Assembly: GCF_037042905.1 (NCBI RefSeq)
Contig: NC_087245.1
Location: 8,186,001 to 8,246,000 of the forward strand
Direction of reading: 5' to 3'
Length of the DNA: 60,000 nt
From: Lytechinus pictus
Lineage: Eukaryota
Below, in pieces: positions 1 through 55,471 of the stretch (its first letter is position 1; the number at the start of each line of letters is the position of its first letter). The translations under genes and the position numbers were made by a program. The notes below the pieces were generated by a model. That model searched no databases and was not told the origin of the DNA. It saw only the letters and a program-made list of their open reading frames with translations.

Positions 1-1339
1 ATGGACCCAGTAGGTAAATAGCCTGTAGGCTGCGTATCTGTAGGAACTGGAAAAAAGGGGAAGAAAATCATTACTGACATTGATAATGAATTTTAACATC
101 ACATAACGCAAATGTTAGAAAACACGGTATTGACTTTGCAGTTGTGGGTAGATTACCGTAATCCTCCTAATTATTACATGCATCAATAGCAAGGTAGTAT
201 TAATTTCTGATGACATATTACATGTACATGTCCCCGGGGGGGGGGGGGGGGTAGGGCCACTTCCATTGACGAGTGGATACCATGCGGGGCCTTGGGTATT
301 TCCATTAAAATGTCTGAAAATGCACCCCTTGCACCTGTTGGAAACAAAACGATACTCTTTCCAGTCTTGGCAAGTTCCCTGAATTGACCCCCTTAACAAG
401 TACAGCAATATTTCTATTGTTATTTCACGGCTGTCGGCCTTCGGTTTTACCTTCTCCAACATCATTGGGCTTAATACAGCCCCAACTCTCACATCTCGCT
501 CAAATCGTATTCTAAACACATACTGTAGTGTTGACTCTCGGTGCAAAAGTACATGATTACATCCTTACATTATTTTTACTAAAAAACTAAGTCTTAAGTT
601 TTTACACCCTTCCAAATTTGACCCTAACACGAAGCTTTTATAGCAAAAAATAGATACCCTTTTTATAATTTTATGTTTTCGACACCCTTACCAAGCTACG
701 TACATAACGTGCCCTATCTTGAAAAAGACTTCCTTTTCACATATTTTTGGGGTCGTATCTACTAATCAATGTAGGCCTACATGTAACAAGTGCCCCCCCC
801 CCCCCCTCGGGTTACATGTATAAAAAATTTTTTTTTTAATGGGTGGGTTCACGTCTGAATGTGTCCCACGTCTTGGCTAGTAGAACATGTATTTTATTGG
901 AAAGTGGCAAGGTCGCAAAGTCAAAGATATTGTCATTTCATTTCACTTACATGTTATCAAGCACTTCAGGCAAGTTCCTTCGATGCCCTCTTGAATCAAG
1001 TCTGGCGACAAGGGCTGTCCGCAAAACCACCCTCTCCATGCATACTTTCTGAAAGTCCTCGTGTCTCACAATGCAAGTTATCCTTGCATCTAGAAACCGA
1101 TCACAGTTGTCCACTTCATGGCAACAGCGACACTGAATCACTGACGGCATGGGCACACAGCTCCCACACTCACACCAGTCGTTGTTGCCCATTCTATTCG
1201 GAGCTGGTACGGGGTCAGGTCCGGGTGGCGGCTGCACCGGTGGAGCAGCTGCTGCGGCGGCCGCTCGGGCTCGTCGACGAACCATCAGTTCTTCCTCGGT
1301 GTACTTTGGCTGGAAATCGTAGCCACGAGGCCCTTCCAT
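1..1339 (-). CDS. Stand-alone P2X7 cytoplasmic-ballast / Nanor / KolX-like Cys-rich protein, complement(join(<1..46,951..1339)), 3' end outside window
   Basis: ATG at 1339 gives MEGPRGYDFQPKYTEEE...RMGNNDWCECGSCVPMPSVIQCRCCHE...CIVRHEDFQKVCMERVVL...LDN. A GTAAGT donor at 950 and a ttttttccAG acceptor at 47-48 continue in frame as (I)SYRYAAYRLFTYWVH, the typical motif order of this domain family. Confidence 0.88.
233..811. mobile_element. Non-autonomous TIR element (CCCGGG-polyG...CACT ends) inside the intron of the KolX-like gene
   Basis: Left end CCCG(G)nTAGGGCCACTT; right end AAGTG(C)nTCGGG. No clear TSD. Confidence 0.6.
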
Positions 1340-2039
1340 GAGCTTCAATTTCAAGATCACGAAATTAAAACAAGAGTCGAAAACCCGCGATGACGAAAGA
1401 TTTACTCGTAAATGATCAAATAAGTAAATATTTTTTAAAAAAATGAAAGTTCCGAGTGCAATCGAGTACGGTATAGCGTTGAAGACTACGAGCGACAAAG
1501 TGATAAAGCCGTTTCGCGTTTTTCTGAGTGGCCAATCTGAGAATAATCATTCTTATTTTTTTGTTTTTTCATTTTTCTCTTTGATATTGTATTAAAAAAA
1601 ATTTAAAAAATATTAAATGTGTTTAATAAATATTTAAATGCACCTGGCAATTTTTTTTTTTTTTTTGGACAAAAAATACATGTATCAATCATCATGATGG
1701 TGTTCATTTATTGTCCAATGAGAAGACGTCTTTACGTAGTCCGGGCCATACGTCACGAATATCGCTGAGAAGTCAAACAATGGCGGCTTCCATGGGTGAG
1801 AAAAATTGATTCAATTAAATGCAATTTTCTCTGCAATTTGGAATCGGGGAGACATGAACGACATGTCATTAGAAAGGTCAAAGATAGGCCTTTCTTATGA
1901 CGTCGTTTTTTCCCTGCCCTGGATTCCCCTTTAAGTAATTGCATACCTTGGGCCGGAGTTATTGAAAAAAATCCTCTGGATGATTGAGAAATCTGTCATC
2001 TAAGACATTTTCACCTGACCTGACGGTTTTTCTTGCAAG

Positions 2040-2292
2040 TTGCCATCTTGAATGACGTCATTATCGTTATTAACTTAATGTCTCGAATCGATATATCGCG
2101 ATTATAACTAGAACTAGTACTAGTATAACTAGTATCGTTTATCTTCGGTTTCGTTCGCATATGGAGCAGATCGTATAATATCGAAAGCAATATCGATATC
2201 ACATTCGTGATTGTTGACGTTCGTTTGTAAATATTTTATAGTTTGGCTGCCATTTTGACCATTTTTATCGTGTTCAACCCAATTAAACATCG
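2040..2292 (+). promoter_or_regulatory. Probable ZNF706 promoter and non-coding first exon
   Basis: CpG-richer patch with TATCGATA (DRE-like) at 2191-2198, YY1-like GCCATCTT (~2042) and GCCATTTT (~2249), and a donor CG|GTAAAG at 2292/2293. The ZNF706 ATG exon starts at an acceptor, so an upstream exon is required. Confidence 0.5.
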
Positions 2293-3613
2293 GTAAAGTA
2301 TATTTTTCATGCCTTTTTCATCTATATCGTTTAAAGTATTTAAACATTAAAATATAAAGTTTTAAAAGTTTGTTGTTTATACATCCTTAGATTGTAAATT
2401 CGATGTGTAAAATTACATCAAACTTTGGACTGTGAATTGACAAAAGGGAGGGAATGAGAACACATGCGAGCCCACACGTACACCCTACCGTCGGTAAATG
2501 GGGATTACAGTAAAATGTCAGAAATTGTTGAATAAATCCCCAGAAACGACGGTTATTCCTGTCTAGCTAAGTAGGCGTTGTACAATACGGTATGATGCAC
2601 TCACACGTATGTTGCGAGGTTAGTATAGTGAGTGATTGTATTACCGCACGCATCATATTCATACGCATCAGAAAATAAATTCATACGCTCAAAATTTTGC
2701 AACATCCTTCCAAAGAGAACTTGAATAGAAATTGATGAAAAATGGTCAAAAACACAAAATGGCAGGATGGTTGCAGTGAACAAGTGGTTATATCATAACC
2801 TTGTTCATTGAATGAGTGACCTCGGCCTGCATGGCCTGGAAAGTGGCTTCGCATGTTTCTTCCACGGAAATAAAAGGAAGGTCGTTGTTGGCACTAATAC
2901 AGTTCACAACCTTAATTCAGCTTGTCAGTATTTTTTAAATTAGATTCTTGATTCATTGTATGCACAATTCCAATGATTGTTTGATAAAATAGAGACCAAA
3001 TGCAATAACTTAAAAAAAAAACTTTTTTATTATTTTTGCTGACGATAATACTTTTTGGAAAATATTCAAAGCGATGACAAATTAAACAAAAAATATAGAA
3101 AATTCTACGTACCTTGCACGAAGCCCCGCAAGTGCTACCGTTTGTTTGTCAATTAACGTTCCACCAAAGTCTTTACAGTAAAAAGATTGGACACTTTGCC
3201 GACTTCGCGTAACGCTTTGCATGGATTTACATGTAAGATAGTTTTTGTGTCTAGTCTTTCCCTTGTAGTGTCTTTGATATGAAGATAAATCGCGCGCCCT
3301 CTTTCGCTCATTAGACAAAAAATTTGAGAACTCGCAAGGTTGCGCCGTATTTTGTCAACGAGAAGAAAAATCAATGCTTAAATGACGCTATTTGAGGGAT
3401 ATTCATCATATTAGGAGGAATTGACTTTGCATCGTTTGGTAAGTTTCGTAGGAGGACTTCATTCTGTAAATCCTCTTATTAAATTTGCGGGAAATGTTTA
3501 GTATTGTTGAATGCGCCGTGCCTTCAATTTTCCTGTACACGGCGGCAGAGATGCACCCATGGGTGGGTATGATGTAGTCTTGAGGACTCCATCCATGATG
3601 ATGTCTTTTTTCA

Positions 3614-4214
3614 AGGTCAAGTCCACCTCAGAAAAAAAGTTGTTTTGAATCAACAGAGAAAAATCAGACAAGCATAATGCTGAAAATTTCATCAAAATCG
3701 GATGTAAAATAAGAAAGTTATGACATTTTGAAATTTTGCTTACCATATTTTTCACAAAATAGTTATATGCACAATTTAGTCACATGCATATGAGAGAATC
3801 AATGATGTCCCTCACTCACTATTTCTTTTGTTCTTTATTGTTTGAATTATACAATATTTCAATTTTTACAGATTTGACAATAAGGACCAACTTGACTAAA
3901 CCATATAATGTTAAGCAATGGTAACTCCATGTTTAGTGAGAAATAAAACTTTGTTTCACAGGATAATGAGGAGAAAATTTGAATATTTCATATTTCAAAT
4001 AATGAAATACAAAAGAAAAAGTGAGTGATATCATCAGTTCCCTCATTTGCATCCCGACCAGGATGTGCATATAACTATTATGTGAAATTAAACGACTCTT
4101 TAAAATGTCATAACTTTCTTATTTTACATCCGATTTTGATGAAATTTTCAGTGTTATGTTCGTTGGATTTTTCTCTTTATTCAAATCAACTTTTTGTTGG
4201 GGTGGACTTGTCCT
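3614..4214. mobile_element. Kolobok-like MITE with long (~120 bp) imperfect TIRs
   Basis: AGGTCAAGTCCACC...GGTGGACTTGTCCT. Subterminal TGAAAATTTCATCAAAATCGGATGTAAAATAAGAAAGTTATGACATTTT is mirrored at both ends. Flanks TTCA/TTGA are degenerate TTAA. Confidence 0.85.
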
Positions 4215-5436
4215 TTGAATACTTTGACATATACTTCTTCATCATTGGTAGACAGCTGGCAGCCGTCTGTTTCGAGGACTTTTTAAACTTTTTTTTTTCT
4301 TCTAAATTTCTCCTCGTACACAGATGGCTCGCTATCGTGCAGCCACCATTAGGGGATTAACAATGCAAAATCCCCCTGACAGGGCTTATCGATTTTTGTC
4401 TTTATTTCATAAAAATATATAAAAAGAACTGTACCAAAAGAAAGATTATTATTCCGTTTTGGCCAGAAATGCACCAAAACGGGGAAAAATAAACTTATAA
4501 GGGGGGAAAAATAAACTTAAAAGGGGGGAAAAACAGTGACTTACTTCGGCTGTCGCGCAACTTCACTCCCCTGTTTTATCCCGTTATATTATATAACCTC
4601 ATTCGTAGGATGAGTGTTTTATCCGAACTTAATACATAAACATATGGCCATTGAGTCCCCTGTACAGATCGCGCTAGAACTTCGGTCTCTGTATTTGGTG
4701 AGTGAAGCCAACGGAGTTCAGCGGAACAACCAACATAACAGAGACCAAAGCTTTTGGTCTACATCATTGGAGTCTTGAACTGCCCTTCATATATGTATAA
4801 GAGACACATGTATGTAAACAAAGATGGATTTCCCTAGGAAATCCATCTTTTAATATAAAAATCACATAAATTGTAATTTTATTAATCTCTACAGTCTACA
4901 CCTTCCTACGCCTAATGCGCCGTAAGAAAGTTATAAAAAAAAAGTCAATTAAAATGTTTAAAAATGAAGGTTTCTTACCAGACCGATGTCGTGTAGATCT
5001 AACTTATGTAGATCCCTCGATCCAAATGTACACAACGCAAATACAATAGGGTCGACCCTTGAACCGCTTATGTATGACATACATGCGGTTAGCGATGCCG
5101 TTTTGAAGAACAATTTATAGATAAAAATTATTATTTCACAAATTCTAAAATTTATTAATTATTATCGTAGGTGGTTTTCTACGCTCGTTATGCAACTCCT
5201 GGGGAAAAATGAGATTGATCGGTTGAGTCATGCATGAGTAAATAAAGATTGAATTAAAAATGACAATTTTTGAAAGTCACAAGAGTCGTTATTCAGATTG
5301 TGCAAATACAAAGTTGGGCAAAAGTTGTTTTTAGGTGAATTTTATGGTGTTAATGCTGTTTTACTATCCATTATTTAGCCACCCCACACACAATTTTGAT
5401 ATCGTATGTTTATGGTTAAGTGAGCACAATGTATTG

Positions 5437-5583
5437 CAGGGGCCGCGGAAGCGGGGGGGGGGGTTTACCCCCTCCACTTTTGTTCCAAAAGCATGTACAA
5501 AAATGTATAAATGACCATACGATTGTGATTTTTTGCATGGTCAGCCCCCCCCCCCCACTTTGAAAACTGTTCCGCAGCCCCTG
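5437..5583. mobile_element. Short MITE, CAGGGG ends, 5-bp TSD TATTG
   Basis: CAGGGGCCGCGGAA...TTCCGCAGCCCCTG, with TATTG at 5432-5436 and 5584-5588. Confidence 0.8.
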
Positions 5584-6163
5584 TATTGTGACGTATCATC
5601 ATAGGGGTTTATGGTAGTATCCTCTAAAACTTGTTAGATCATGTAAAAACTTGAAAATGTTGGTGACTCCCCCGATTATAGGCCCCTCCCCCATTTTAAA
5701 ATTCTGGAACCACCACTGATTTGTCCATAAATTAAACTGATCCTGAGAAATTGTTAGGAAAAGAATACATTTATGTAGTATAAAGAGTTTTCGAATGTGC
5801 TCGCTCAACCATGAAAATGTTAAAAGTTCGGAGAGTGTGTGGTGATAGAAATGATGGATGATAAACACAACAGCAATTAAAGTCACATTTGAAACCGAAT
5901 TTGCCCCCAATACTCACTTTAATACCCTTTAAAATGAGTCTGTGACATTGAAAATACCCCTTTTCCCACTTTGATGCATGCTCACTCATCCATGAATAAA
6001 CAATTCGATTTCATTTTTGCACAGAATTCTGCCTATAGGTTGATAAACATTACTGCCAAATGACATTGCCAAAGACAGCCTTGAAAAAAGTTCCACCATA
6101 TTGAATAAGGGGTTACTTATTCTTAAACATATGCACCCATAATGTACACAATGTCTATGAGAG

Positions 6164-8734: not shown

Positions 8735-8784
8735 AGAGAGGAAGTCAAAATGTGAAATGAGGGTTTGTTTCATGGACGGTTATT

Positions 8785-8924
8785 GTCTCGCCTGCATAGC
8801 AGAGCGAGACTTTAGGCGCCGCTTTGGCGGCGGCGTCAACATCAAATCTTAACCTAAGGTTAAGTTTTTGAAATGACATCATAACTTAGAAAGTATATGG
8901 ACCTAGTTCATGAAATTTGGACAT
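8785..8924 (+). mobile_element. 5' fragment of Helentron/HINE-like repeat family
   Basis: Same 5' end (GTCTCGCCTGCATAGCAGAGCGAGAC...GGCGGCGGCGTCAACAT) as the copies at 10049 and 55292. Confidence 0.7.
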
Positions 8925-9806
8925 CGTGCGTATAAAAGTTGTTCGTAACTTTACGAACAGCTTTATGAAACACCCCCCCGGACTAAGATGCTTTACTGAC
9001 CGAGCCAACTTCACTCAAATTTAACCATAAAAAGAAAAGAAAAGCAAGATAAGAAGTTGTCAAAAACAGCCTGCAATCTGCATCATGGAGAAAAAATCTA
9101 TTTGAATTATGTTCTATTATCTAAAAATAAGGTTAGCTATGCTAAAAATATAGGGCATGGCTCAGCTCACAGAAAAAGAAGAAACCAGCCCCTCTTTTGT
9201 TCTTTCTTTTTTAAAAACAAAATAGAACAATTTCTGCACTCAAATTGATCCATCTCTGATATTGAGGAGTTTGTGTCATACAGCTTTTTCTTTCATATCT
9301 TTCAAGCATCAGTTACCGTACATAGAACATGTTGAAAGTTTTAATATTTTCTAATCAGAATCTTTCGGTCATTGCTTTTATCGATTATCCTTCCCCTACT
9401 AAACATTGGATAAACAAGTTTCTGATATTTGACATTGAAAGTGAGGTTGACAAAGAATATTACTGTAACTATAAGAGTGTAATAATATTGAAGGCCTTGA
9501 ATTTCAGTATTTTTATGGCAAAAACTTACCCATAGCCTATGATACATTTCTTTTTTTTTTTCATTACTTGTGAGAACAATTTATTTTAAAAGAAGGTTAC
9601 TTCGAGTATCCAAGGCCAATGGGAGGGGCATTGAAGCCATTCATTGGGGTGACCAAGGAAATGGCTTTGGATGGCATTGGAATGATTGGATTATTTAAGC
9701 CCCGTGATATATGCTGACCAAACGTTTTTTTAATTAACATTTATTGATTATGGTTTATTTGTTTTTAATTTATCTTTTTCTTTATTTATCTGGCCTTCTT
9801 GTAGCC

Positions 9807-11685
9807 ATGGCACGTGGACAACAAAAGATTCAATCTCAGCAGAAAAGAGCGAAGGAGATAGAGAAGAAAAAGAAAGCTGCTACTGGAATGACCTCTAAAG
9901 CAGCTGGAATGAAGGCCCTCACATTTAAGTGCGCAGTTTGCATGGTTAGTATACAAAGGCACGTTAAACAAATCCATAGAGAGGGAATGGGGTAAGCTTT
10001 ATGTTGCAAGTCCTCAAGCCACTCCCCACCTTTTTTTTTACCATTTTTGTCTCGCCTGCATAGCAGAGCAAGACTAGTGTATAGGCGCCGCTTTTCCGAC
10101 GGCGGCAGCGGCGTCAACATTGATATCTTTACCAAATGTTAAAGTTTTTTAAATGACATAACTTAAAAAGTGTATGGACCTAATTCATGAAACCTGGATA
10201 TAAGGGTAATCAAGTATTACTGAACATCCTGCCTGAGTTTCAGGTCACAGGACCAAGGTCAAAGGTCATTTAGGGTCAATGAACTTAGACCAGGAACATG
10301 TTGGAGGAATCAATATGGAAATCTTAACCTAAGGTTAAGTTTTTGAAATGTCGTCATAACTTAGAAAGTATATGGACCTAGCTCATGAAACTTGGACATA
10401 AGATTAATTAAGTATCTCTAAACATCCTGCCTGAGTTTCAGGTCACAGGTCAAAGGTCATTTAGGGTCAATGAACTTTATAGACCATGTTGGAGGAATCA
10501 ATATGGAAATCTTAACCTAAGGTTAAGTTTTTGAAATGTCATCATAACTTAGAAAGTATATGGACCTAGCTCATGAGACTTGGACATAAGATTAATTAAG
10601 TATCTCTGAACATCCTGTGCGGGTTTCAGGTCACATACAACAAAGGCCAATGGTCATTTAAGGTCAATGAATTTTGCCGAGTTGGGGGTAATTGTCTAAT
10701 TGCCATCATTACTTTGAAAGTTTATAGATGTAGTTAATGAAATGTGGACATAGGGTAATCAAGTATCACTGCTCATCTTGCACAAGTCCTAGGTCACTTG
10801 ATCAAGGTCAAATGTCATTTAGGGTCAATGAACTTAGTATTGTTATGAATGGTGTTTTTTTTTTTTTGAATAATTCTATAGTCATTTTCAAAGTAAGCAC
10901 TGGTGCTGTATTGAATCGCGTAATGCAGGCAAGACTGCCAGAGGCGATCCACTTGTTTTAATATTGATTTGCCAATGACCAAATCATACACTGACATGGG
11001 TAACGGTTCATTCATGTACATACTTATGTGTTCATAAACTACAGAACCTATGCCACCCAGTGTCACCTACAACAGGGCTCTCACTTGTGCAGATTACACC
11101 ACCGTTATTTATTCTAAAGAAATAGCCAGACTGTTTCTTGGTACCAAATCCAATGTCTAAAATAACATAATCATTCTTTTGTTTTCTGAAAGAAATAAGG
11201 AAACCCGACTACAATAAGACAATTGATGCAATGGTTACAAGATTTACTGTGGGCTGATTTATGTTACATTCTAGACAATCTAGAGACCTTATTTTTGCTG
11301 TCTTGACTCAAGAAGTCATGATGATCACCAAAATCATTTGCTCAAAAGTTCTTCCACATTGTAAATTTTATGGTGAAAAGACATCCTGCAAGAATTGCTC
11401 CAGGCTTCTTTTTTGTCATTTTCATGATTTATTTTTCACTCTACAGTACTGTTATTTGTCAAATTATTCTTTGTTGTAAACCTACATAGTATGGACATAA
11501 TAGTTGTTGTTGGTGGTTATTTCCATTCATCATTCTTAGTAATGTTATTTTTACTATTGTTTTTTCTGTGTCTCATAATTTGATGTCTTCTACAGACCCA
11601 GATGCCTGATCCTAAGACTTACAAACAACATTTTGAGAATAAGCACCCAAAGGCTCCACTTCCAGCTGAACTCAAAGAAGCATAG
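9807..11685 (+). CDS. ZNF706: Zinc finger protein 706 (4F5/SERF-like N-terminus + C2H2), join(9807..9944,11596..11685), 75 aa
   Basis: MARGQQKIQSQQKRAKEIEKKKK...ALTFKCAVCM|TQMPDPKTYKQHFENKHPKAPLPAELKEA*. Phase-0 intron with GTTAGT donor and tctacAG acceptor. Confidence 0.96.
10049..10957 (+). mobile_element. Helentron/HINE-like non-autonomous element with internal tandem repeats
   Basis: Inserted in a T-run. 5' subterminal IR GTCTCGCCTGCAT and 3' ATGCAGGCAAGAC followed by a short GC palindrome and CACTTGTT. About 4 internal units of ~160-190 bp (GGACCTAGCTCATGAAACTTGG...GGTCAAAGGTCATTTAGGGTCAATGAACT). Confidence 0.8.
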
Positions 11686-13239
11686 GAAACCAATCTTTCC
11701 TCACCTAAGGTGAGTTTGGTCATTATAAATATAATATATTTCCTGAGAGCCAATTTATATACTTTTTCAGAATTACTTAACATTGATGCAAACATTTAAC
11801 TTGTAAGAGTACCCAAAGTTCCATTTGCAGCAGATAGGGGATCAGTTAAATAGTTCACATACATGTAAACATAATTATGATGGCAGGATAGTTCATCTGG
11901 ATTTCTATGTTTGAAATACTTATAGCAGATTATTTTTAAAAAATTGTGAGGTTATGCTCTTGATTTGTAGCATTTCAGCTCTGGAACCAGAATTTCTTTG
12001 TATTAAGCATTAGGTGTATAAAGTGACATCTAAGTTGTGGAAAAAAATATCATTGAGTTTTCAAATTCCTTCTTGATATTCAGAATACATTGAAAAACTC
12101 ACCACAAAGACTGATCTTCATGTTTCCTCATATTTTTTTTTTTTTGTGAAACTGCATGATGATATAGCCAAGTTATTATCATTTTGGCCATTTCATTAAG
12201 TCACAGCAAACACCACAATTGCGAAAGTCCGTATTTAGCTTTGGTAATTCCCCCAATGCATCTATCACTATTCCAAATCATTACTAGATCATAATTATGA
12301 ACGCGCTTATGATGTGAAGGATACATGTAAAATGAAAGTTTTACAGGATAAATTTTGGAAGTCGTACATGAAAATTTATTTTGATTGAATGCCCTGTTCA
12401 AAAGAAAATACGTACAATATACCTACCTGATTTTTTTTTCTTGTTTCTTTTCAACCCCATTTCAAAGATAACAATCTCGACTTTAAAAAACATGTTGACA
12501 GCATATCTTTAATTGTAAAACAAAAACTAGGAACTATTCGCCACTGTAAACAGTATTTTGATAAAGCACAATTGAATAAGCTGTATTGGGCTTTTGTAAT
12601 GCCCCATACAGGGTTGGCGCGTTTTAAACGGTGTGTTTTAAAACATGTTTTAAAACGCGTTTTAAAACACCCGTTTTTTTTACAAAAAAAACGTGTTTTA
12701 AAACACCTCATAGACTCGTGTGTTATAAATATGCAGGGATGTGATTTTACATGAATTTATTTTTTATACTTTTATTTCTTAATTAGTTTATTATTTTCTT
12801 CTAACTAAATCTCTTTCTCAACACCACTCTTTTTCTCCTCTCTCTTTCCCCCCTTATTCTCCCTTTCTCCATTGCTTTGTCATGTTCCTTTCCTCCTGTT
12901 CAATTGTGCACATCAATCCATATTTAAGAATATTCTCATTTTAACAAACATCTGAGTGTTGTGCTCACTTTTAGACAGGGAAAGAAACACTATTTAAAAT
13001 GAGCTCAAATATGTAATAGTAGTACTTGAATGAAATGGAAGTGTTGCACAAACATAATAATATTTTGCAAATAGACTGTACATGTATATCTGACATTGTA
13101 ACCTTGAGGTACACACGAAATTAGGTGAAACTTTGCGCTTCGTAAAGATGAAGAAAAGTAATTTAATTCAGTATAAGATAATCAGCTAGCAAACCTTTTT
13201 TTCCTCCCTGAACATGTGTGGAACTACCATTGTTTTAAC

Positions 13240-13518
13240 ATTTTTTGGTTCAGTCAAGTTGGTCATTATTATCAAATCTGTAAAAATTGAAATATTGTAT
13301 TGTTCAAACAATTAAAAAAAAATAGTGAGGGGCATTATCAACTCTCTCATTTGCACATCACTGAGTTGTAATAAATGTTTTGTGAAAAATAAGCGAAATT
13401 TTAAAATGTTATAACTTTCTTATTTTACATCCGATTTTGATGTAATTTTCAGCATTATGCTTGTTTGAATTTTTTCTACTGATTCAAATCAAACATTTTT
13501 CTGGGGTGGACTTGACCT
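13240..13518. mobile_element. Half copy of the Kolobok-like MITE family seen at 3614-4214
   Basis: Ends GGGGTGGACTTGACCT|TTAA with the same subterminal block ATAACTTTCTTATTTTACATCCGATTTTGATG. Left boundary approximate. Confidence 0.75.
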
Positions 13519-14019
13519 TTAACCCTCCTAACACTCCCAGGGGACCGTAATGGCCCCCTTAAAAATTTCTATGATAAATCCATAAGCACAACAGGGCCAC
13601 GCCATATTGTTCAAGACTATTTTTTGGATACATGCATGGATATGTGGTTATGATATTACCATGGAGCTATCAACACATTAATAGCTCAATGATATTACAA
13701 GTGCATGACAGACCAGAATTGCTCAATATCGTGATTTCATGTATAAAGCCAATGCTAATTTTTCGCCAACATTTTTATCTGTATCAATATTTGTACTTTT
13801 TGTTAATGATTGGAAAATTATTGCCAATAATTTCCATTAAAAAACTGATAAAAAAAACACAAAAGTAACCACAAAACTGTAGATAAGAAATATGTAAAAA
13901 AAAACAGTTAAAACAAACATTAAAAAAACAATTTGATCAGAATTCCTCAATTAAAGAAATAAGCAGTTCAAGGGCCTAATATTTATAGATTTAAACCCAA
14001 TTTTGTATTTCATGCACTT

Positions 14020-24460: not shown

Positions 24461-27400
24461 ATGCCGGTGATGGACCACAAACGGAAAGCAGAGGAAGGTG
24501 CTTTAGTTGCAGTTAAAAGATCGAAGCATCATGAACTTGTGGCTGCAAGCAATCAACAAAATGCTCTCATGCAAGCGGTAAGAATTAACTTTACTCTTTA
24601 GTAAGCAAGAATAGACTACTCGACATTCTCACAATGACTATCATACGACTGTATTCCCAGTTATGCGATTTAGCTTCCGTGCCATGCGAACATTACAATC
24701 ACGAAATCGTGATAGACTTCAGAGAAGAGGCGGTTTATACTAATTGCACGCACCGTTAACAGGGATGGCTTCCTATGTGGTAGACTCTGAAATGACTGGA
24801 GAGAAGAGTTTCTGAATGTTTGTCTATGCCCAGCTTTTAGCTTTTTTTGGTGACTTGAATACAAATAATGCTCCCTTAATTTGACATACGTGTGCAAAGA
24901 ATCAACAGATGACGGTAAATTCATGAAATTCCTTGGCGCTAATGCAGTTTGAACTAGGCCTAGTTATGTGACAAAAAATAATAAAAAAATTATCTGATAG
25001 TGATATCAATAAATTTGGTGTCATTTGAAAACTCTTAAAAGGCCTTTCAAATGATACCAAGAACTCTAATTTTCATCAAGGAATTATAAAGTTATTTCAG
25101 TTTAAGTTGCGCATATTCATCTAAATGTGTGGCCGATGTCTTATTCTTAATGTAAAGTCAATGTAATACATAACCGATTTTTGTGACCTTTTGAACCCAA
25201 GTCTTCAACAGGCTCTAACTTCTTTGTTTTGGGGCCCTTTGGAGTAATTTTGGTATGAATGGAAAGGTGAAAGAACGCTCAATTGATGTGTAATCATGTC
25301 ACTTTGTAATTTTTTTCTTAATATGTGTACAATAATTTCTTCTAATTAATTCAAATTAATTATTCCAATTATGCATTGTTTTTGCCAAATGATGGTGATC
25401 ATGATAGATAATTTATGAAATTTAGTTGGCATCGAAACAGCATCATGTGGGAGATAATTTTCGGCAAGACTTCCCTAAAATTAAACAAAAAATATGGAGA
25501 AGGTTTGTCAAGAATTAAATATACTCACTTGTGTTAAAATGTATTTTATTGAAATATTTATACTTCTTGATTTGTAGGTTTTTTATGAAGATTGTGGTAA
25601 ATAAAGTTTCAATTTCAATCTAACATATATCTAAGAGATTTAGGAAGGAAAAGTTGGATACATACCTGATACCAAAATGTGGCTTTATTCCGTCAAAATC
25701 TCGAGTGTGTGTAATTCCCAATGTCATCGGTTTATTTAGTCAGAAAAATAAATACCCAATACTCTTGGAGAGTAGACTAGTCGTAATATCGGTTGATAAC
25801 CGACACACGATAACCGTTATGAAACCCATGGCTTTCAACAATTCCTGGTACATGTAGCTCAGTGAGTAAGGCGACAGACTGGAGATGCTTCGTTCTGCAG
25901 CGAGAGGTTCGAATCCAAGTTCCAAGCTAAAGTAAGAAGAAAAAAAGAAGATAAAGAGAATGAAAGAAGGGGGTTTTGGAGAAGTATTTTTTTTAATTAG
26001 TGGAGGGGACATAAAGAAATCTTTCCTAATTTTCTTAATGAAATTGTTTAAAGTATAGTTTTTGTAATTTCTAATGTATTTCTTTGTTTTTCAGGTATAA
26101 ATTACAAGCCTTTTTTCAACTTCAGTATTGTATACATATATGTATGGGGTCTTTTTTGACATGAAAATTATCATTTTGTATTTTGTATGGTTTAAAAATA
26201 ATGTACAAGTGTGCTATTTTCTAATGTATTTGATTGTTTCACCAATTCCTTCTCTTATGTATTTTATAGTTTCAACAATTTGTTATACATGTAGGCCTAT
26301 AATAGCTTTTGATTTTAGAGACCCTGGGCATTTGATTACAATTTAATTAAGCTTTGATATATTTTATCAGTTTTCAATGCATTTCTTAGATTTGTATACA
26401 TATTATGAAGGCCCTGTTTGAGCTCCCTTTTTTTTAAAAAGAAAAATGAATAAATTCAGATTCTAAAGTGAAATCACTGCATATAAATGTAGACATACTT
26501 CCATACTATTATGAAACAAAACAACAAAATTAGCAAGATTTTGTGGAAAAGAACTTCACAATCCAAACTTACCAATCTCTCCATTGATAAACTTGAAAGG
26601 CACCAAATTATTGGTTGAAGACAAAAGAAAAGGAAACGAGTGGTCTATATCTTTAAAAAAAAAACCTGAAAAAAAAACAGATATCAAAGCTCTAAACAAC
26701 AACAAAAACAGACATCAAAGCTCCAAACAACACTAAAAACAAGAGAAACAAAAGTGACACAAAAACTTGTACAAATCCCATCCCCATTTTCCAGTTAGAG
26801 ACACAACCCCCCCACCTGCAACCCTCATGCAAAAAAAGGAAAATTTAAAAAATAGGGGGGAAAAAAGATTGATAAAAAATACAGGACTAGACCCATGTGG
26901 AAATGAACAATTATTTCCTCTGAGTTTTCATGTATTTCCTTACAATCTTGAGTGAAAAAATCAAACAACATAATTTTTGCATTTTAATTTAAAAGTCAAC
27001 ATTCATGATAGGCCTATTCCCCTTTCAAAAGCAAATCCAGTCTCCAAATAATGAAACATGATTTAAAAGTTTCCATATATATTTTTTCTACAAAAGAAAA
27101 AAAATAAACACCATAGATTTTGCATTTTAATTTAAAAAAGTCAACATCAATGTTTCACTTTCAAAAGCAAATCCAGTTTCCAAATGATGAAACGTGATTG
27201 AACAATCAACCACCTTGAGTCACATTGGGAGGAAAATGTATTTTTGCGACAAAATGTATGTATTAAAATCAATATCAGAATAATAAATCTATGGTATAAT
27301 GACAGAAATTTTCAGAAAAAAGCACAATATTATCAAGTAACAAACAATTCAAGATCCAATTCAATCCAGCATGAACAACTCACTATCCACCGCTCCCGTC

Positions 27401-30400
27401 ACCCAGCCCACGGCATCGGGCAGCTTGACTGCCGAGAGACTGCCGAGAGACTCTTATATCTGGCCTGCGTGTTGATAGAATCAGCTCAAATTTTGATATT
27501 TTGCAGATCAATACTAACAGAAAGAGTTGGCGTCCTTGTTTGGAAACATATTTTACTTACCATTACAAATTTCGGTCATTTACGCATCCAAAAATTTGAT
27601 GAACTTTCAAGCGGCGATAAAGCCGCGATATCCATATTGAAACTTACATGTACAGAAAGTGCACATCATCGACTGTCTAAAAAAAGGCATAAAATCGCAG
27701 GCCACAAGTTGCGCATGCACAGTAAACTCCATTTTCGAGGAGAGAGCCAGGACAGAAGCGATGCCACTTGCAGTGAAACTGTGCACGGCCTGTGCAGCCA
27801 AAACCAGCGCTCGCGATGCGGCGGCATTCGCACATACCTGCTGTTTCTCAAGTTTTGCTCCGGCCAACTTCGAGCAAACTTCCCCACCAGAAATCATGAC
27901 ACGTCATGGCAAGTATGTCAGTCATATTTCAAGGTCAATATGCCCACTGCTTTTTGAAATATTTGATCGGGAACAGCTGGCTGCAGTGTATTTCAGCGTC
28001 GATTTCGACGTGACATTGTTCGTGATGAGCACTTCACACATATTGATTTGGCTCACAAAAATATTTTTGCTGCTCTGAAGCCATTTGCCACTGGTATACA
28101 TGAATTCAAGGAAATAAGTGCAGTGAAAAGAGATAATGATGTAAAAGAGTTAAGAGATTTTCCTTTTATATGGGGAAAGAAAATAACTATCCATTAAACA
28201 AATTGTGCATGTATATAAAATGATATGTAATTTGAGGGGAAGGTTGATTTTAAAACAATACATGTATGGCTAAATCTAGAAGTTCCCAAATCGTTTGTTT
28301 TTATACAGGGGCCACCTCGCCTATCTAGCATGACTGCAGCTATCATGCTATTGACTGGTCATGAGGGGGAGATCTTCAGTGCTAGATTCCATCCTAATGG
28401 ACAGACATTGGCATCAGGTTCATTTGACAGGTCTATCTGTGAGTATCTAGGTCTATAATACTAGGGCCGCCGGCCGCATGTTCTGTTGGACTTTCAAAAG
28501 GCAATATTTAGTTCACAATATGCATGTATCATCTCAATGTCATCATTATTATTTTAGATGGGGTAGCAATAAGAAATACGAGAAAGGTTCTAAAAGAACT
28601 TACCCCATGACACTTATCCAACTCACTGGGATCTGAGGGAAAGGGACAGTATAAATCCAAACCAACATTTGTTTTCCTATCTATTACACCTCTATGATAG
28701 CCTGGCTAAGCTGAATGAAAAAAATGTTATGTGAACTTTGTTTGACAATTATTATTGGGTGACAATGTATTGATATGACATTACACATGGTGAGGATCAA
28801 ATACCCTTCTATGCAATAGTGTGCGACAGCCCGAAACAGTTCTTAAACTTGAAATGATCAAAATGTTAATTTTTACAGGCTTATGGTGAAATATGAATCA
28901 TTGTGACTATTCAATGTACTAAACATTTTGTAATTTGTAATAACTATTCTTTACAGAAAATGATCACAATTATGACTTATTTGTTCAAAATTTTATTTAA
29001 AGTTTATTCAATTTCTTAGAAATGTAATTTTGCTTTCCATGCTTTAATGATGCCCTAAATACCCTATGGAAAAAGCTCTTTCAAATAGCCCTAGAAAATC
29101 TTTCTTGTCTTGTTGCTGCCTCTTTTCATTTTGAGGTTTCTCTTTCTTGCATTATTTCTTAAACAGGTGAAGTAAAAATGTTTGGTGACTAAATGTTTTT
29201 AAATTCACTTTGAATTTTGTGTCATACTTTCACTGACTGTTCATATCAAAGCAGTAAGAAGTGTACATCGATACTATATATAAACACCGTTCAGTCTATC
29301 TGCAAGCCCCTGTCTTAATTAGCAAATGAGCAAGATTTATCCAAGTCCTCTTGTGGCTGAATTCATGTCCCTGCAAAATCTCGTGAATTGTGAGACTTTG
29401 TTTCTCAAAGAATTTAACCACTTTTTCCTTGAGTAAAATTGATTATTTTTATACCATATGAAAGAGTAAACATTACTCTTTTATACTGATTATTTCTTTT
29501 GAATAAAATATTTTGATAAATAAGTGAATTTTAGGCATGAAAAGATGCCTCAAACAGAATTTTCTTCCTCTTTTTTCTCTTGCAAATTGTGCAAAATTTT
29601 GTGTTTTAGGCACAAACATTATTTATATCATCAGAAAGCTCAAACTCTACACTTTCTTACTATGTCACTTTTGATATGTGGCACCTTTTAGATGGGTCAG
29701 CAGCCAGCTTTTTCCAACAAAATGCAAGACAAGATTTCTGACATTTCTGAGACGCATAAAATCTAGAGTTCTGATTGGTTGATTAGTGTTTCAAAACATC
29801 AGGCGCGGGTAATTTGATGAGATTACCACTTTGTGAGTGTGACCTTGCAGAGGCCCAGTGTGGGAACATTGGAATTTGCGTGGGTGTGTGGTCTCTATGA
29901 CCAATCAGAGCGCAGTATTCTTGTTTTTAAACTGCTAAATGTACTTGTCCTATGAAAAGCTGGCTGCTGACCCATCTAAGACACCTCTTCTTATAAAAAT
30001 TATATCACATTAAAGCTTAGATCTTCAGCTTTATCATAATCTAAAAATTATTAGGGCCCAACCAGAAATTAAGTGTAAAAACAACAAGTTTTGTTGCATG
30101 AAAATAATTATTTTGTTTCATGTTTAAGATCAAAAGTTTCACCTATGTTACAAAATTGTTTTAAAAATCCAGACACATGACCTGAAATAATTATATTTAT
30201 TCTTTTTAATGATACCAACAACATGAAATTTGGTCAATATTAAGAGCAGCAATGGCCAAATAAAAAGAGGTGTTTTCATCCGCACCAAGCTCATTAACGA
30301 TGCAAAAACCCTCTAGTCATGAATATCACTTGGATAAAAGAAGCTACTTTTTGAGGGCTTGCCGACTGACTGCCATTCTTTCATTTTACTTTCCTAGTTT

Positions 30401-33400
30401 TATGGAATGTGTATGGAGAGTGTGAGAACTATGGAGTATTGAAGGGCCACCAAGGTGCAATCATGGAGCTCCACTATAACACTGATGGCAGGTAAGTCTA
30501 AGTTAACCACTGCTGTAGGATTGGTCAAAGGTCGATCAGATGATAGAGTGTAGTTTTCCCATCAATCATCACTTGCAGACTTGCAGTGATGGAATTTTTT
30601 TGGCTTGTTGATCACATCAGATATATTATGAATCATTATGAGTTTGTCTATTAAAAAATTTGTTGTGAAGATAAAATTCCTTTACAAGTAAGGTCATAAT
30701 TACCTTGCTCAAGCAATATCTATGCGTTTGCAGGCAGTTTACATACATGCGCTATTAGTAAATCTAGCGTTGACAGAATTTTGTATAATAGGAAGCCTTG
30801 ATTTTTAAATACAAATTCTTACTTTGTAGAAGAATATACATATTGGTTTATTTTTTTTAAATGGTTCCAGATGTGAACTACAATGATCTCCTTGATTTCA
30901 GGTGACGAGGCAAACTATAACTTCCTCGGCAAGCTGGATGTACTCGCTATCTCTCATCAGCTTTGCTTCAGAAAAATAGCTACATCCAACTTGGCTTGAA
31001 GATGATAGTTTGCCCATCACCTTCACTAACAAAGGTTATTTGCTACTATCTATCATTCCATCTATCATTTTTCATTCTTAATTTTCTTTTTTATCACTTT
31101 CCCATATGCAACTGTCCTCTCGTAATTTGATTTTTGGTATATAGAGATAAAATATGGTGTATCAGCTTGCAGTGTTGACATCTGGCAAAACAAAAGATCT
31201 TTAACAGCTGGTTGTGATCTGGCAAAACAACATTAGCATACATAGCCAAAATTTGGAAATTGAAAATCCTACTCTGATCGCGCGATTCCCAAACTTTCCG
31301 GGATGGTCAACACCGTGCCAAAAAAGGACAAACATTTCTAAACAGCAGCGAGCTTGCAAAAATTTTGTCCTTAACAAGATATTAGATTTAGACATCATAA
31401 AACAAAATCTTATTTACCCTTTTACTTTCATTTTCTACTAGTTATCACTAGAAAGCAGAATAAAAGCACAGTTTTGTGCAATTATAATTTTTCATTTTCA
31501 CAATTATCCAATGATAATGTAAAAATAATTTAGAAAATTTAAATAAATGAATATGACAAAAATAATCACAATGAAACAAAAACATTGAAAAATATATTAT
31601 ATAGACCGAAATAAAGCGTTTGTCAATGACTGCTGCGTGATGATGAAGCTACAATTCAGCCTGACTGAAACATGGCGTGGGCCTACCGCCGCTACGCCGC
31701 GCCGGTACCATATGCCAATGCAATACAGTCATACTATAATAGTCACTCAAATAAAACCATGGAAAGATGATTAAAAATCCAACTAGATTAAGAGTCCATA
31801 GCCACAGGTGCAGAATCAAACACTAAGAAAAACTGTAGAGGTGAAAATAATCATGGACTTCGCTAAGATAAGTCGAAACCTCACCGCTGAAAGCTTACGA
31901 TCCCCCAGACATAACACCGCATTCCTAACCAACGGCCAGCCAGGCCCAGCGGCCCAGTGCTTCAGCGAGAGGCCCACCTCATGGAACAAGCAACCTCATG
32001 CCATCGCACACTCATGAGATCTCAATGGAAACATGTGAGATGTGTAAAATACGATTTTCATGCTGAATGCACGTATGTGCGCACTCAAAAGTGTCTTTAA
32101 AGCATTGCAGTGCGTCAGAAATACATAAGGCAACGCTAAAAGCGTTTGAGTGCTAAAATATGTAAATTTATTCCCCTCCAATGTTAAAAATCATATTGCT
32201 ACGATTTTCCCTCTTTTTAATCTAAAAAATCGTAACAAATGCTCCAAAATACGATTTAATCATATTGGTTGGCAGGTATGCGTTAGTTGATCTACATTCT
32301 TCTACCAGATTATTTGAATGAAAAATGTGAAAATTACTGAATTTCTTACAATTGATTTGAAAACTTGAATTTTTCCTGAGGAAATATTTTTTTTACATCC
32401 AAAATCTAAAAACCTTTAAAAAAATGTTAAAGGAAAAAGAATGAAAGAAAGGAACACGGGTTTTCCAGATCATAGTTGCATGGCAAATCTCACTTAATCG
32501 ACAAGATTATTAAACATCTTGAATGTAAGGATTATATTCCAGACTATTATATGAAAGAAAAAAAACATCTGAAGGAAAGAATACTGTACTCAAAACATCC
32601 TAGGTATATTATCTTTTCCCTACATGTATATATTTCAAAAGTGACTCATCGTTTAGGGAAACATAAAAATATTCAAAAGAAATTAGTCATTATAATGGTA
32701 TATGTATTAATATGTGCAGGTCCAAGAGTCCCAATTTTATGTATTTTTGTACTTGATTGTCTTTCCAGTCAGATTGTGTCCTGTGCGACGGATAAGATGG
32801 TATGTCTATGGGATACAGAGACAGGAGCTAGGGTGAAGAGAATGAGAGGACATACATCATTTGTCAATTCATGTTACTATGCTAGGAGAGGTCCTTCATT
32901 AGTCACCAGTGGTAGTGATGATGGCACCATCAAAGTAAGTCTAGGACCCTGTTTAACAAGGAGTTGCTAATGATTGGAATCAAACTCAAATTGTAATTTG
33001 ATGTTAATTTTCTAATCTCTAATTTGAGATCAACATCTGTTGAGCTTAATTAAAATCTTGTGAAAGTATATTGTCAGTGAAAAATTATTTTAAAAACTGT
33101 TGTATTTGCATTATGATAACATTAAATCTGTTGTATTTTCACACTGTTGTATGGGCATCATGGTCCGAAATTGAGTTTCTAATAACTTGATTACTCTATG
33201 AATTCTTCACTGACAAAATACAAACTTTAAGCCCTGATGAAGTGCATGTAGTTATGAGTGGTTACCAACAAACCAAATTACATGAGTCTTGATCTAACCA
33301 TTGAAATCATGATAAATAATGACTGACTATAAAGCAGTTATTGGATAACATCCATTTTTATTTTGACTACTTTGGTTGTATAGATTTGGGATACAAGAAA

Positions 33401-36400
33401 ACGAGGCTGTGCCCAGACGTTCCAAAGTACTTACCAGGTCTTAGCTGTTTCCTTCAATGATACCAGCGACCAGATTATATCCGGTGGTATTGACAATGAT
33501 ATCAAGGTAAGTCAGTTTAGGGCATTTTCTATTATCTAGTGAATACCAAGGGAATAATTTTTCTTTGTTGATAAAGAAATCAAGTTGGGTATTTGTGATC
33601 TAATCACTTTACAAGTCCTGAGGTGTCAGTTTTCTTTTTGCCCTTATTTTCCACACTCTAATATTATGTTGACTCAGGAGGTGGTAAAATAAGAGGAGGA
33701 AATTAGTAACATTTGATGCAAAATAACATCTCTGTTGTGGAGATCACAATGTGCTCAAGAATAGATGGTCAGAAGTTTCCTATTATATTTAATAGAAAAT
33801 CTTTTGTGAGTGCATCTATTAGCAAACCTGGCTGTTGTTACATGGTTGATAAATGATTTGTATTGTGTTTCTCTTCATACAGGTGTGGGATCTGAGAAAG
33901 AATGGACTACTCTACAAGATGTCTGGTCATAGTGACTCTGTGACTGGGTTAGAACTAAGTCCAGATGGGTCCTATATTGTTTCAAACTCCATGGATAATA
34001 CGTGTAAGTATTATGTGAAAACATGTTATTGATTTCTCATACATGTATTTTAAAATCATTTACACATTTTTGCATGGACGTTAGCATAGGTAACAAGAAA
34101 CGTGACAATAGTACACTATTACAGTGCAGGGTTGAACTTCATTCTGATGATGCTTCATCTTTACATGAAAGTCTGTTGAATGATCAAATCTCAATATTCT
34201 ATTTGCCCTTTCCTTGGATGTATATATATTTTTTTCATTTCAAAAGTTGGTAGGTATGATTATAAAGCTTGTTTTTTCAACTCCTCTCAAAATCACTACC
34301 AGTACTTTTTCTTACTAGTATGAAATCATATTGTATAATCCTGATTTTATATCTTAATGTGTAAAGTCATTTATGAATTTCTTTTCTTTTCCTGACTGTT
34401 CTCAAGTACGAATTTGGGATGTACGACCGTTTGCTTCACCAGAAAGATGTGTGAAGATATTCCAGGGACACCAACACAACTTTGAAAAGGTGAGTGATGT
34501 TACTAAATACATGTGCGGACGATTGCCAAGATCAGAAGCTGGGAGGGGGTGCATGATACCTCCAAAATAGCTGAGTCTTTTAATAGGGTCCTGCCAATAC
34601 CATTGTGTTGTGCAACCTCATTGAACATGTCAACAGCACATGTCACTTGATCATGATCTGACTATTGTGGTAAGTATGACTAAGAGTCGTACGTAAATGC
34701 CTATTTGCATGTGGTATAAAAGGAATGGCCGCATTAGTCAGATCATGCCAAAAGGACGTGCACTACTGTGTATTGATCAATAAGATTGCACGTTTCATAT
34801 TGTTTATGTGTTGCAATTTAAGTGCGACTCTAAGTCATACTTAAATCTTTGTGAAACACCCCCAGGGCTCCAAAAGTGACTATTAACTCCTTTTGAAATA
34901 GCCCAGAGTTTCTGAGTTTCCCCATGGTCAGTTCTTGCAGCTAAAAAATCATTAACAGATAAATGTACAAATGAACTTGCTATTGTTGCTAAATGTCATA
35001 AGTGTCTAGAAAGGGATTTAATGGTAAAAGACAGTAGTTGCAGCAAACAATTATTTCATGAGAAAGTCTTCAAAATCAAGGTTAATAGTCAAAATATTAT
35101 TATTATCATACATCTAGATCTGGTACATTAATGTAAAGTGATCTTTGTAAAATCATGAAATCTTAGCTCAAAATCGATAATTATCATGATCACTTAAACA
35201 GAAAAGCATATGTGGGACAGTGTATTAATTATGCTTAAAAAAATACAGGAGATTTGATGGAATTCCGTGCTTATTTTACTCAATTCTCCGCAATTACGCG
35301 TTTTCTTCCAGAGTCATTTGTCACATATTTTTATTTATACATACAAACACTTCGGTGGCAATTTCTTTGGATTCTGTTCAAACTCATTTTGAGATCGTTA
35401 CCACAACTGGTATTTATCTTTAGCCTATGTACTATAAATTGAAAATTATCCACTTGACTATGCCTTTTCAAATCTCTTATTCTATTGATGTAGAATTTAT
35501 TACGATGTTCATGGTCTCCTGATGGTAGTAAGGTTGCAGCTGGATCAGCTGATCGTCATGTCTATGTATGGGATACCACATCAAGGAGAATCCTTTACAA
35601 GCTACCTGGCCATGTTGGCTCTGTCAATCAGATTGACTTCCATCCTCATGAACCTATCAGTAAGTTACAAAAACTGGACTTAAAGGGAAAGTTAACCTGA
35701 CGAAAAGTTTGTAGTAAAAATACCAGAAAAAAATAAAACAAAATGCTGGTGAAGGTTTGGGAAAAATCTATCAAAGATCAAAAAAGTTATTAGAATTTTA
35801 AGTTTTTGATTTGTGATATCATAAATGAGCAGGTGCCCCATATCTTACGTTGTATAAAATGCATGAATATCAATTTTTAATGGTTCAAAATGACTAAAAT
35901 ATTTTTCCTTTAAGGAGAGGGTGTGAAATGATTTATCTGTTGATATACTGAAGGTACACTAAAAACGACATTTCATTGACTTTTTTCATTTTTAATTCAC
36001 GATGCATAAAAAGCTGCTCGCATAAGACGTCACAAATGAAAAATTACACTTCTAATAACTTTTTAAATCTTTGATGGATTTTCCTCAAACCCTTCACTAA
36101 TATGTTTCTATTATTTTTCTGCTAATTTTACATTAAATTTTTTGTCAGGGTGAACTTCCCCTTTTAATATGTTGATGAATTTATTTTTGGAGAAAGGAAG
36201 AAAAATGTCCACTTAAATCAAACAGGTGACAAGCAACAAGCAAGTGCACAAATCGATCCAAGGCTCTCCAAGGCCATATTTTGATGGGCTTAAATGCCCC
36301 TCTCAGCCTCAGAGATTTCTGTGTTCTTTTTAAATTTTCCCCATCTGTGCTGTAAAAGATGTTACCTATAGAAAATGGTCAGGCCCTAAATGGAATATAA

Positions 36401-45390: not shown

Positions 45391-53944
<8,554 letters not shown>

Positions 53945-54123
53945 CTGAAATGACAGAAATAAAAATCAATGATGGTTTTATCAACATACATGTACATGTA
54001 TAACTGTGTGTAATGAATTTTCTTCAGCGACTCAAGGTTTATCTTTAAAAGCAGGGGATGAGGTAGGAGGCAAAAAATCTCTCATCACATCTAATTTTCA
54101 AGACAAATCCAGAATATATATCT

Positions 54124-55292
54124 AACAAGTGGAACGCCTCTGGCAGTCTCGGCTGCATTACGCGATTTAATATAGCAGCAGTGCTAACTTTCAAAACTAC
54201 TATAAAATAATCATTCACAAAAACACCATTCATATAATGACATAATACCACGTTCATTGACCATAAATGACATTTGAACGGTGACTTGAGACTTGTCAAC
54301 TACACCCATGTCCACATTTCATTCACTCTATCTATAAACTTTCAAAGTTATGATGGCAATTCAACAATTACCCCAACATGGCCTAAGTTTATTGACCTTA
54401 ACTGACCTTTGACCTTGGTTTTGTGACCTGAAACTCACAGGGGATGTTCAGTGATACTTGATTACTCTTATATCCCAAGTTATATGAACTAGATCCATTA
54501 ACTTTCAGAGTTAGGATGGTAATTCAACAAATACCCCCAACACAGCCAAGGTTCATTGACCTTTAATGACCTTTGACCATGGTCAGGTGACCTGAAACTC
54601 GTACAGGATGTTCAGGATACTTGATTACTCTTATGTCCAAGTTTTATGAACTAGATCTGTAAACTTTCAGAGTTAGGATGGTAATTTAACAAATACCCCC
54701 AACACGGCCAAAGTTCATTGACCTTAAATGACCATTGACCATGGTCATGTGACCTGAAACTCGCACATGATGTTTGCTAATACTTGATTAACCTTATGTC
54801 CAAGTTTCATGAACTAGATCCATAAATTTTCAAAGTTATGATAGTAATTCAACAAATACCCCCAACTTGACCAAAGTTCATTGACCCTAAATGACCTTTG
54901 ACCTTGGTCACGTGACCTGAAACTCAAGCAGGATGTTCACTAATACTTGATTAACCTTATGCCCAAGTTTCATGAACTAGGTCCATATACTTTCTAAGTT
55001 ATGATGTCATTTCAAAATCTTAACCGAAGGTTAAGTTTTTGAAAATAATTCTCCCAACATGGTCAAAGTTTATTGACCCTAAATGACCTTTGACCTTGTT
55101 CGTGTGACCTGAAACTGAGGCAGAATGTTCAGTAATACTTGATTAACCTTATGTCCAAGTTTCATGAACCAGGTCCATATAATAAGTTATGATGTCATTT
55201 CAAAAACTTAACCTTAGGTTAAGATTTGATGTTGACGCCGCCGCCGTCAGAAAAGCAGCGCCTATAGTCTCACTCTGCTATGCAGGCGAGAC
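54124..55292 (-). mobile_element. Helentron/HINE-like non-autonomous element with ~6-7 internal tandem units
   Basis: Reverse-complement copy of the 10049-10957 family, with both ends intact and ~160-bp units GTTCATTGACC...TGACCTTTGACC...GTGACCTGAAACTC. Confidence 0.82.
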
Positions 55293-55471
55293 AAAAATCA
55301 ACCTTATTGGAATAATACTTTTGAAAATTACAACCGGGGAAGTGTTGGTGAAAACAGCCATGTACAATGTCATCATACATGTACTATAAATGTTCTGATG
55401 AAACAGCAAACAAGGGAATTTTCACAAATTATGCATAAAAAAAACAAAATTTCCATGACAATATTAATCAA

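Follow-up and report, generated by a model that had tools for sequence, protein, structure and literature searches.

What kind of gene occupies the left edge of this window (the whole 60,000-nt stretch of Lytechinus pictus DNA that was analysed): a relative of the P2X7 receptor kept by the host, or an accessory gene that travels with a transposon? On the minus strand, a frame with its ATG at 1339 stays free of stops over 145 codons (389 + 46 = 435 nt) and then runs off the left window edge. It is made up as follows:

951..1339, minus strand: KolX exon 1, with the ATG at 1339; 389 nt, that is, 129 codons plus 2 nt, holding six of the seven zinc cysteines
47..950, minus strand: KolX intron, 904 nt, GT-AG, phase 2, with the GT donor at 950 and the AG acceptor at 48-47
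225..820, no strand assigned: non-coding element nested in the KolX intron, a high-depth repeat with ~28-bp terminal inverted repeats (225-251 and 793-820, 89%)
1..46, minus strand: start of KolX exon 2, which runs off the window; the 195-aa protein P0001 implies 153 nt more

The acceptor is preceded by a polypyrimidine tract, and the spliced translation is identical to residues 1 to 145 of P0001 (XP_063951158.1; 195 aa, RefSeq, L. pictus), whose remaining 50 residues and stop make up the 153 nt beyond the window; P0001 may represent either the window locus or another identical copy. A first-pass annotation, made from the letters of this DNA, had described an uninterrupted spliced frame of just this length, and all of the motifs that it quoted are present. 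It had also foreseen that an automated pipeline would name the gene after P2X7, as RefSeq indeed does ('P2X purinoceptor 7-like [Lytechinus pictus]').

Canonical signals, homology and the RefSeq model speak for the splicing. None of the read joints listed (15 of 74) spans the intron; in the two runs that were only guessed to be RNA, the listed matches likewise include no splice joint, and one contig reads through the donor. Four relatives, two from metagenomes (P0006 and P0017) and two Lytechinus models (P0157 and P0159), end at the exon junction, which fits a conserved intron. The inverted-repeat element inside the intron measures ~590 bp and has G-run ends; in organism A, represented by read contigs, a joint from 150 to 420 removes 151-419 while the rest of the element is partly kept, and the insertion therefore predates the split between the window and organism A. 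The antisense open reading frames at 118-564 and 859-1338 had no Pfam match, tblastn with the fetched relatives revealed no second KolX in the window, and positions 1-6000 gave no Rfam match.

As to the product, full-length P0001 matched Pfam P2RX7_C alone (E 1.2e-17), and the frame upstream of the ATG is open for only 70 codons, in keeping with the earlier remark that no channel domain precedes the gene. The AlphaFold2 model obtained with 97 relatives (mean pLDDT, 91.5, compared with 40.5 for a model from 5 sequences) consists of helix and loop, with no beta strands. The likeness to the P2X7 ballast, which had been proposed as something to check by structure comparison, proved strong: the first 14 Foldseek rows were all P2X7 structures, and among 48,161 chains VIA-align gave 6U9V (P2X7) a Z score of 11.9 (rmsd 3.2, 129 residues aligned), against 2.7 for the next match. 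C56, C58, C61, C72, C73, C89 and C159 align with P2X7 ballast cysteines between 477 and 572 (7 of 7 kept), and these zinc ligands are 98-99% conserved in the 97 relatives. P2X7 R546 and R578 have their counterparts in the arginines R133 (99% conserved) and R165 (94%), whereas the other three listed GDP contacts, H547, R574 and K583, are not kept and align with Y134, V161 and E170; Rump et al. report the same pattern for invertebrates in the part of their text that was available (PMC7016195). Conservation of R138, G149 and R153 lies at 80-93%, and P2X7 lacks the G149/R153 motif (93% conserved among the 97 relatives). As modeled, then, the product is a free-standing ballast-fold protein without a channel.

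That fold also bears on another claim of the first-pass annotation, namely, that KolX is a relative of the His-Me finger nucleases. A Cys/His-rich, transposon-borne protein would suit such a nuclease, and KolobokP elements that carry one exist in L. pictus according to a supplement table of PMC9587614. However, the confident model contains no beta hairpin and hence no beta-beta-alpha metal core, it matches the P2X7 ballast instead, and no I-PpoI-like or other His-Me nuclease appeared among the Foldseek and VIA-align matches listed. In the available text of Kojima and Bao (2022; PMC9587614), the nuclease belongs to KolobokP and is treated as an accessory separate from KolX, which means that the earlier statement merged two lineages. 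We consider a nuclease ancestry largely refuted and exceedingly improbable.

The KolX family is evidently large, since phmmer with the protein returned 2,692 cluster representatives at E ≤ 0.001. No longer fused forms were seen among 8000 candidates, a weak negative given that phmmer lists longer relatives, and Pfam detected no DDE fusion in 26 of these longer relatives. Among 195 candidate metagenomic stretches, one carried a related locus, on a 1.5-kb contig (34% identity) too short to show an element, and among 138 viral candidate contigs there was none.

If the gene belongs to a transposon, an end of that transposon should be recognizable upstream of the ATG. The region in question contains the following features:

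1340..1930, minus strand: non-coding end of the element, which likely holds the promoter and the 5' UTR; its AGGGG terminus lies at 1930
1865..1901, no strand assigned: subterminal palindrome with 13-bp arms (1 mismatch) and an 11-bp spacer; candidate protein-binding site
1931..1934, no strand assigned: TTAA, likely one copy of a target-site duplication; contigs stop at 1934 (inside) and 1931 (outside)
1935..3500, no strand assigned: flank of high-depth repeat DNA outside the element, which appears to be inserted into it

A TTAA-bounded end 590 bp upstream of the ATG had been noted before; the AGGGG that starts at 1930 and abuts TTAA lies at 591 bp, and both the contig breaks and the palindrome back it. 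The combination of TTAA and AGGRR corresponds to the T2-MITE/Kolobok end described in PMC6004289 (available text). We rejected TTAAAGG as stand-alone evidence of a transposon end, as it occurs in the window at chance level (16 seen versus about 13 expected); the end at 1930 therefore needs other evidence. The terminal 10-mer given by the first-pass annotation occurs once in the window.

Such evidence came from reads of four runs, compared as contigs at an 80% cut-off, with figures taken from 32 of about 16,570 pieces and thus valid among the matches listed. In X1 and X6 (two of the four runs, from two studies), a contig covers 1679-1934 at 98% (5 differences) and begins exactly at 1934. The X13 contig matches 1931-2076 (12 differences and 2 gaps; ~90% alike) and continues with 179 other letters to the left of TTAA, as would be seen at an empty site in a different copy of the repeat that forms the flank; X2 had no row at the TTAA boundary among the matches listed. 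A contig break at TTAA is what would be expected if several flanks follow it, and a variant right after TTAA could be an alternative cause of the break at 1934. In X1, the summed depth rises from 21-70 over 820-1872 to more than 1,000 from 1873 on, a qualitative contrast rather than a measure of copy number, which marks the flank as repeat DNA.

When the terminal 101 nt were shuffled 500 times with dinucleotides preserved, a palindrome as good as that at 1865-1901 arose just twice (2 of 500). Compared with the rest of the window, the terminal 85 nt score highest (36) against a repeat end near 29,690, where the alignment is in register relative to the terminus of that repeat; the lead over a match near 25,100 (35) is narrow. 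No second copy of the AGGGG end lies within the window, and the element would continue off the left edge. Likewise, the 60-kb window contains no transposase, second end or second TTAA; these would lie to its left, and full-length Kolobok copies in Xenopus measure 6.8-13.9 kb (PMC6004289, available text).

Has the gene moved recently? A second RefSeq protein, P0004 (XP_063966941.1), encoded on another chromosome-scale sequence (29.4 Mb), is identical to P0001, encoded on a 44.3-Mb sequence of L. pictus, at 194 of 195 residues in a protein-level comparison; the single substitution, F96L, falls at a position that is 93% conserved. Alternatively, segmental duplication or an assembly artefact could account for the pair. 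The 11 Lytechinus relatives gathered fall into at least five families with cores about 50-62% identical, and within-family pairs reach 98-99% (P0007/P0157, on 66.4- and 96.7-Mb sequences, and P0158/P0159), giving two families with near-identical dispersed or repeated copies. Judged from sequence, this divergence pattern is that of transposon families. Compared with organism A, 7 of 12 exon 1 differences among those listed are synonymous, where 23% would be expected (p about 0.01-0.06); such an excess would indicate selection but not its beneficiary, and an active element lineage would explain it just as well as a host-kept gene.

Taken together, the open frame, the seven zinc-ligand cysteines, the ballast fold, the TTAA-bounded end and the near-identical dispersed copy support the identification of the frame as the intact, intron-split KolX gene of a young, recently transposed Kolobok transposon of the Kol0 type, with its end at 1930, a reading to which we assign a probability of roughly 0.8. 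Transcription very probably runs inward from a promoter within the 591-bp end region, and a transposase gene as well as the matching end would lie to the left of the window. The first-pass annotation had called it a Kolobok accessory gene, "still mobile or domesticated"; the accessory gene stands, with its ballast-fold protein and Kolobok-type end, and between the two fates the evidence favours recent mobility.

The alternative fate would be domestication: a Nanor-like host gene that descends from KolX, with the nearby Kolobok end as a fossil of its origin. Such a gene would account for the open frame and for the synonymous excess among the 12 exon 1 differences listed; a ~95%-identical copy in organism A keeps pieces of the same intron insertion, and Nanor provides a published precedent (PMC9587614, available text). 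Nevertheless, a host gene would hardly explain why conservation of the non-coding end (98% over 1679-1934 in organism A) matches that of the exon, why contigs break exactly at TTAA or why the gene adjoins high-depth repeat DNA. It is not a single-copy gene either, in view of the 99.5%-identical second copy elsewhere, whose F96L change is as expected of a drifting copy, and a word-limited search (4 matches among 270 candidates) provided no closer orthologue from another urchin genus. Domestication is accordingly an improbable account of this locus. A different possibility is that the element is a non-autonomous or internally deleted Kolobok derivative, which would carry KolX without a working transposase and be moved in trans. 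That no transposase is visible within the window and that the intron already bears a nested insertion both speak for it; this reading overlaps with that of a recently transposed Kol0-type element, in that the identity is the same and the autonomy differs, and we hold a loss of autonomy to be possible but not probable.

What a young Kol0-type element would gain from KolX is a separate matter, as the open-licence literature searched yielded no description of KolX function. A two-copy structure prediction scored 0.81, versus 0.01 for the best of three controls, a score that may reflect structures already known to the predictor, since the P2X7 ballast trimerises (the soluble ballast is a trimer in the available text of PMC9574498). 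The runs agree in 100% of contacts, partner pLDDT is at least 69, and the interface comprises residues 95-123 and 138-149. In calibration, the score mark was passed by 21 of 30 solved microbial pairs and by none of 23 single chains; for eukaryotes, the figures were 17 of 29 pairs (7 of 16 in animals) and none of 30 single chains, with only one in seven passing among eukaryotic pairs that lack an older solved relative. KolX is therefore predicted to self-associate, in a model that covers two copies, which suggests a role at the transposon ends or as a cofactor of the transposase.

We speculate that two zinc ions staple the KolX fold, that the protein pairs through helices 95-118 and 138-149, and that the conserved arginines R133, R138, R153 and R165 might bind a phosphate-bearing partner, most likely the DNA of the element end (the palindrome at 1865-1901) or a nucleotide. 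As a non-catalytic cofactor, KolX might then help to load or regulate the element's own transposase, as the Myb-like second protein of Harbinger does; that protein attaches to the ends and recruits the transposase (PMC9392472, available text). Self-pairing, conserved arginines and an adjoining palindromic subterminal site together suggest a comparable role. By this analogy, a cofactor function is plausible, if a little short of an even chance, while direct binding of KolX to the palindrome is the more doubtful part. The complete proposal, in which a self-pairing zinc protein grips the palindrome inside the Kolobok end by way of its conserved arginines and is required for transposition, is equally tentative; if true, the guanine-nucleotide pocket of the P2X7 ballast would be a re-used grip on DNA phosphates, and this young, intact urchin element would serve as a test system for the role of the ballast before its capture by a channel.

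Conversely, KolX might act as a GDP/GTP-binding regulator that makes no contact with DNA, an ancestral role that P2X7 would have kept. The two arginines shared with P2X7 (R133 and R165) agree with this, and Rump et al. suggest that such domains may bind GDP (PMC7016195, available text). On the other hand, the remaining three listed GDP contacts are replaced, and the conserved G149/R153 motif missing from P2X7 points to a function lost in the receptor; we regard a nucleotide-dependent regulator as unlikely, though no more so than binding to the palindrome.

The closest known counterpart is the KolX of Kol0 (Kolobok0) elements of the Kolobok-1_XT type (PMC9587614), which likewise combines a free-standing ballast fold and seven cysteines with a TTAA + RR end, and from which we found no difference of kind. 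According to the available text of Kojima and Bao (2022; PMC9587614), KolX, which has the ballast fold, is encoded by Kol0 elements alongside a transposase; P2X7 arose by fusion of a P2X4-like gene with KolX, and Nanor is likely a domesticated KolX, the link between KolX, ballast and Nanor being a stated conclusion. The connection to P2X7, in print since 2022, and the element class are thus already published. The text-searchable supplements of that paper gave no match to the terminal 10-mer, and their Lytechinus entries are KolobokP; the sea-urchin family may already be listed, e.g., in Figure S6 or in Repbase.

With the P2X7 ballast (PDB 6U9V; Pfam PF20478), the sea-urchin protein shares the fold, the seven zinc cysteines and the equivalents of R546 and R578, and self-association is predicted for it. 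P2X7 has a channel and membrane part, whereas the 195-aa KolX lacks the ectodomain and the two transmembrane helices, differs at three of the five listed GDP contacts and has the extra G149/R153 motif; moreover, its intron lies inside the domain, while the P2X7 ballast is encoded by one exon (PMC7016195, available text). Nanor and the invertebrate ZCD proteins (PANTHER PTHR36981) are likewise small proteins in which the zinc-cysteine domain stands alone; Rump et al. (2020; PMC7016195, available text) report them from the sea urchin S. purpuratus as well. Nanor is likely domesticated, whereas the sea-urchin KolX keeps a transposon end and a near-identical dispersed twin. The Myb-like protein of Harbinger resembles KolX as the small, non-catalytic second gene product of a two-gene cut-and-paste transposon, a functional analogy only: its fold is unrelated, and end binding and transposase import are proven there, whereas the role of KolX is a proposal. 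Annotation of the sea-urchin KolX is ordinary by itself, and its value is practical: the P2X7 ballast and Nanor are both proposed to descend from KolX, and an intact young copy in a laboratory sea urchin makes the function of KolX testable. Many invertebrate annotations as 'P2X purinoceptor 7-like' likely represent transposon genes.

Several further ballast-domain relatives and window features came to light. In the frogs Pelobates, Leptobrachium and Spea, a KRAB box is fused to the ballast/KolX domain (P0097, P0119 and P0140, within a clade of 8 frog proteins), possibly as a domesticated KRAB-KolX repressor; no report of this fusion was found by title or abstract start in the literature searched. 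The L. pictus gene model P0057 (XP_063959511.1) contains Ig domains and what looks by eye like a transmembrane stretch, and its C-terminus carries a ballast domain; either a membrane protein has captured KolX, much as in P2X7, or the fusion is a product of the gene model. In P0107, from a pipefish, a THAP domain is fused to the ballast domain, and a comparable Ixodes case is mentioned by Rump et al. (PMC7016195, available text). The same paper links 'two markers' to ballast genes across animals and reads them as ancient synteny; we suspect that these markers may be parts of the Kolobok transposase gene.

Elsewhere in the window, a worn repeat end at ~29,400-29,690 (minus strand), likely a Kolobok-type MITE, shares the subterminal palindrome pattern and its spacing with the end of the KolX element. 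A repeat that ends in AAGG/AGGG and has inverted ends is present at 3610-4220, 13,235-13,522 and 35,680-36,170; some of these copies adjoin TTAA, and they are likely T2-type Kolobok MITEs. Host exons were recognized at 32,476-32,967 (plus strand), with a WD40 repeat, and at 53,671-54,081 (minus strand), where the similarity to the PI4KB accessory domain is weak and does not reach the Pfam cut-off. Finally, two clusters of a 162-198-bp tandem unit repeat, at 8,780-10,960 and 54,120-55,300, lie in inverted orientation to each other.
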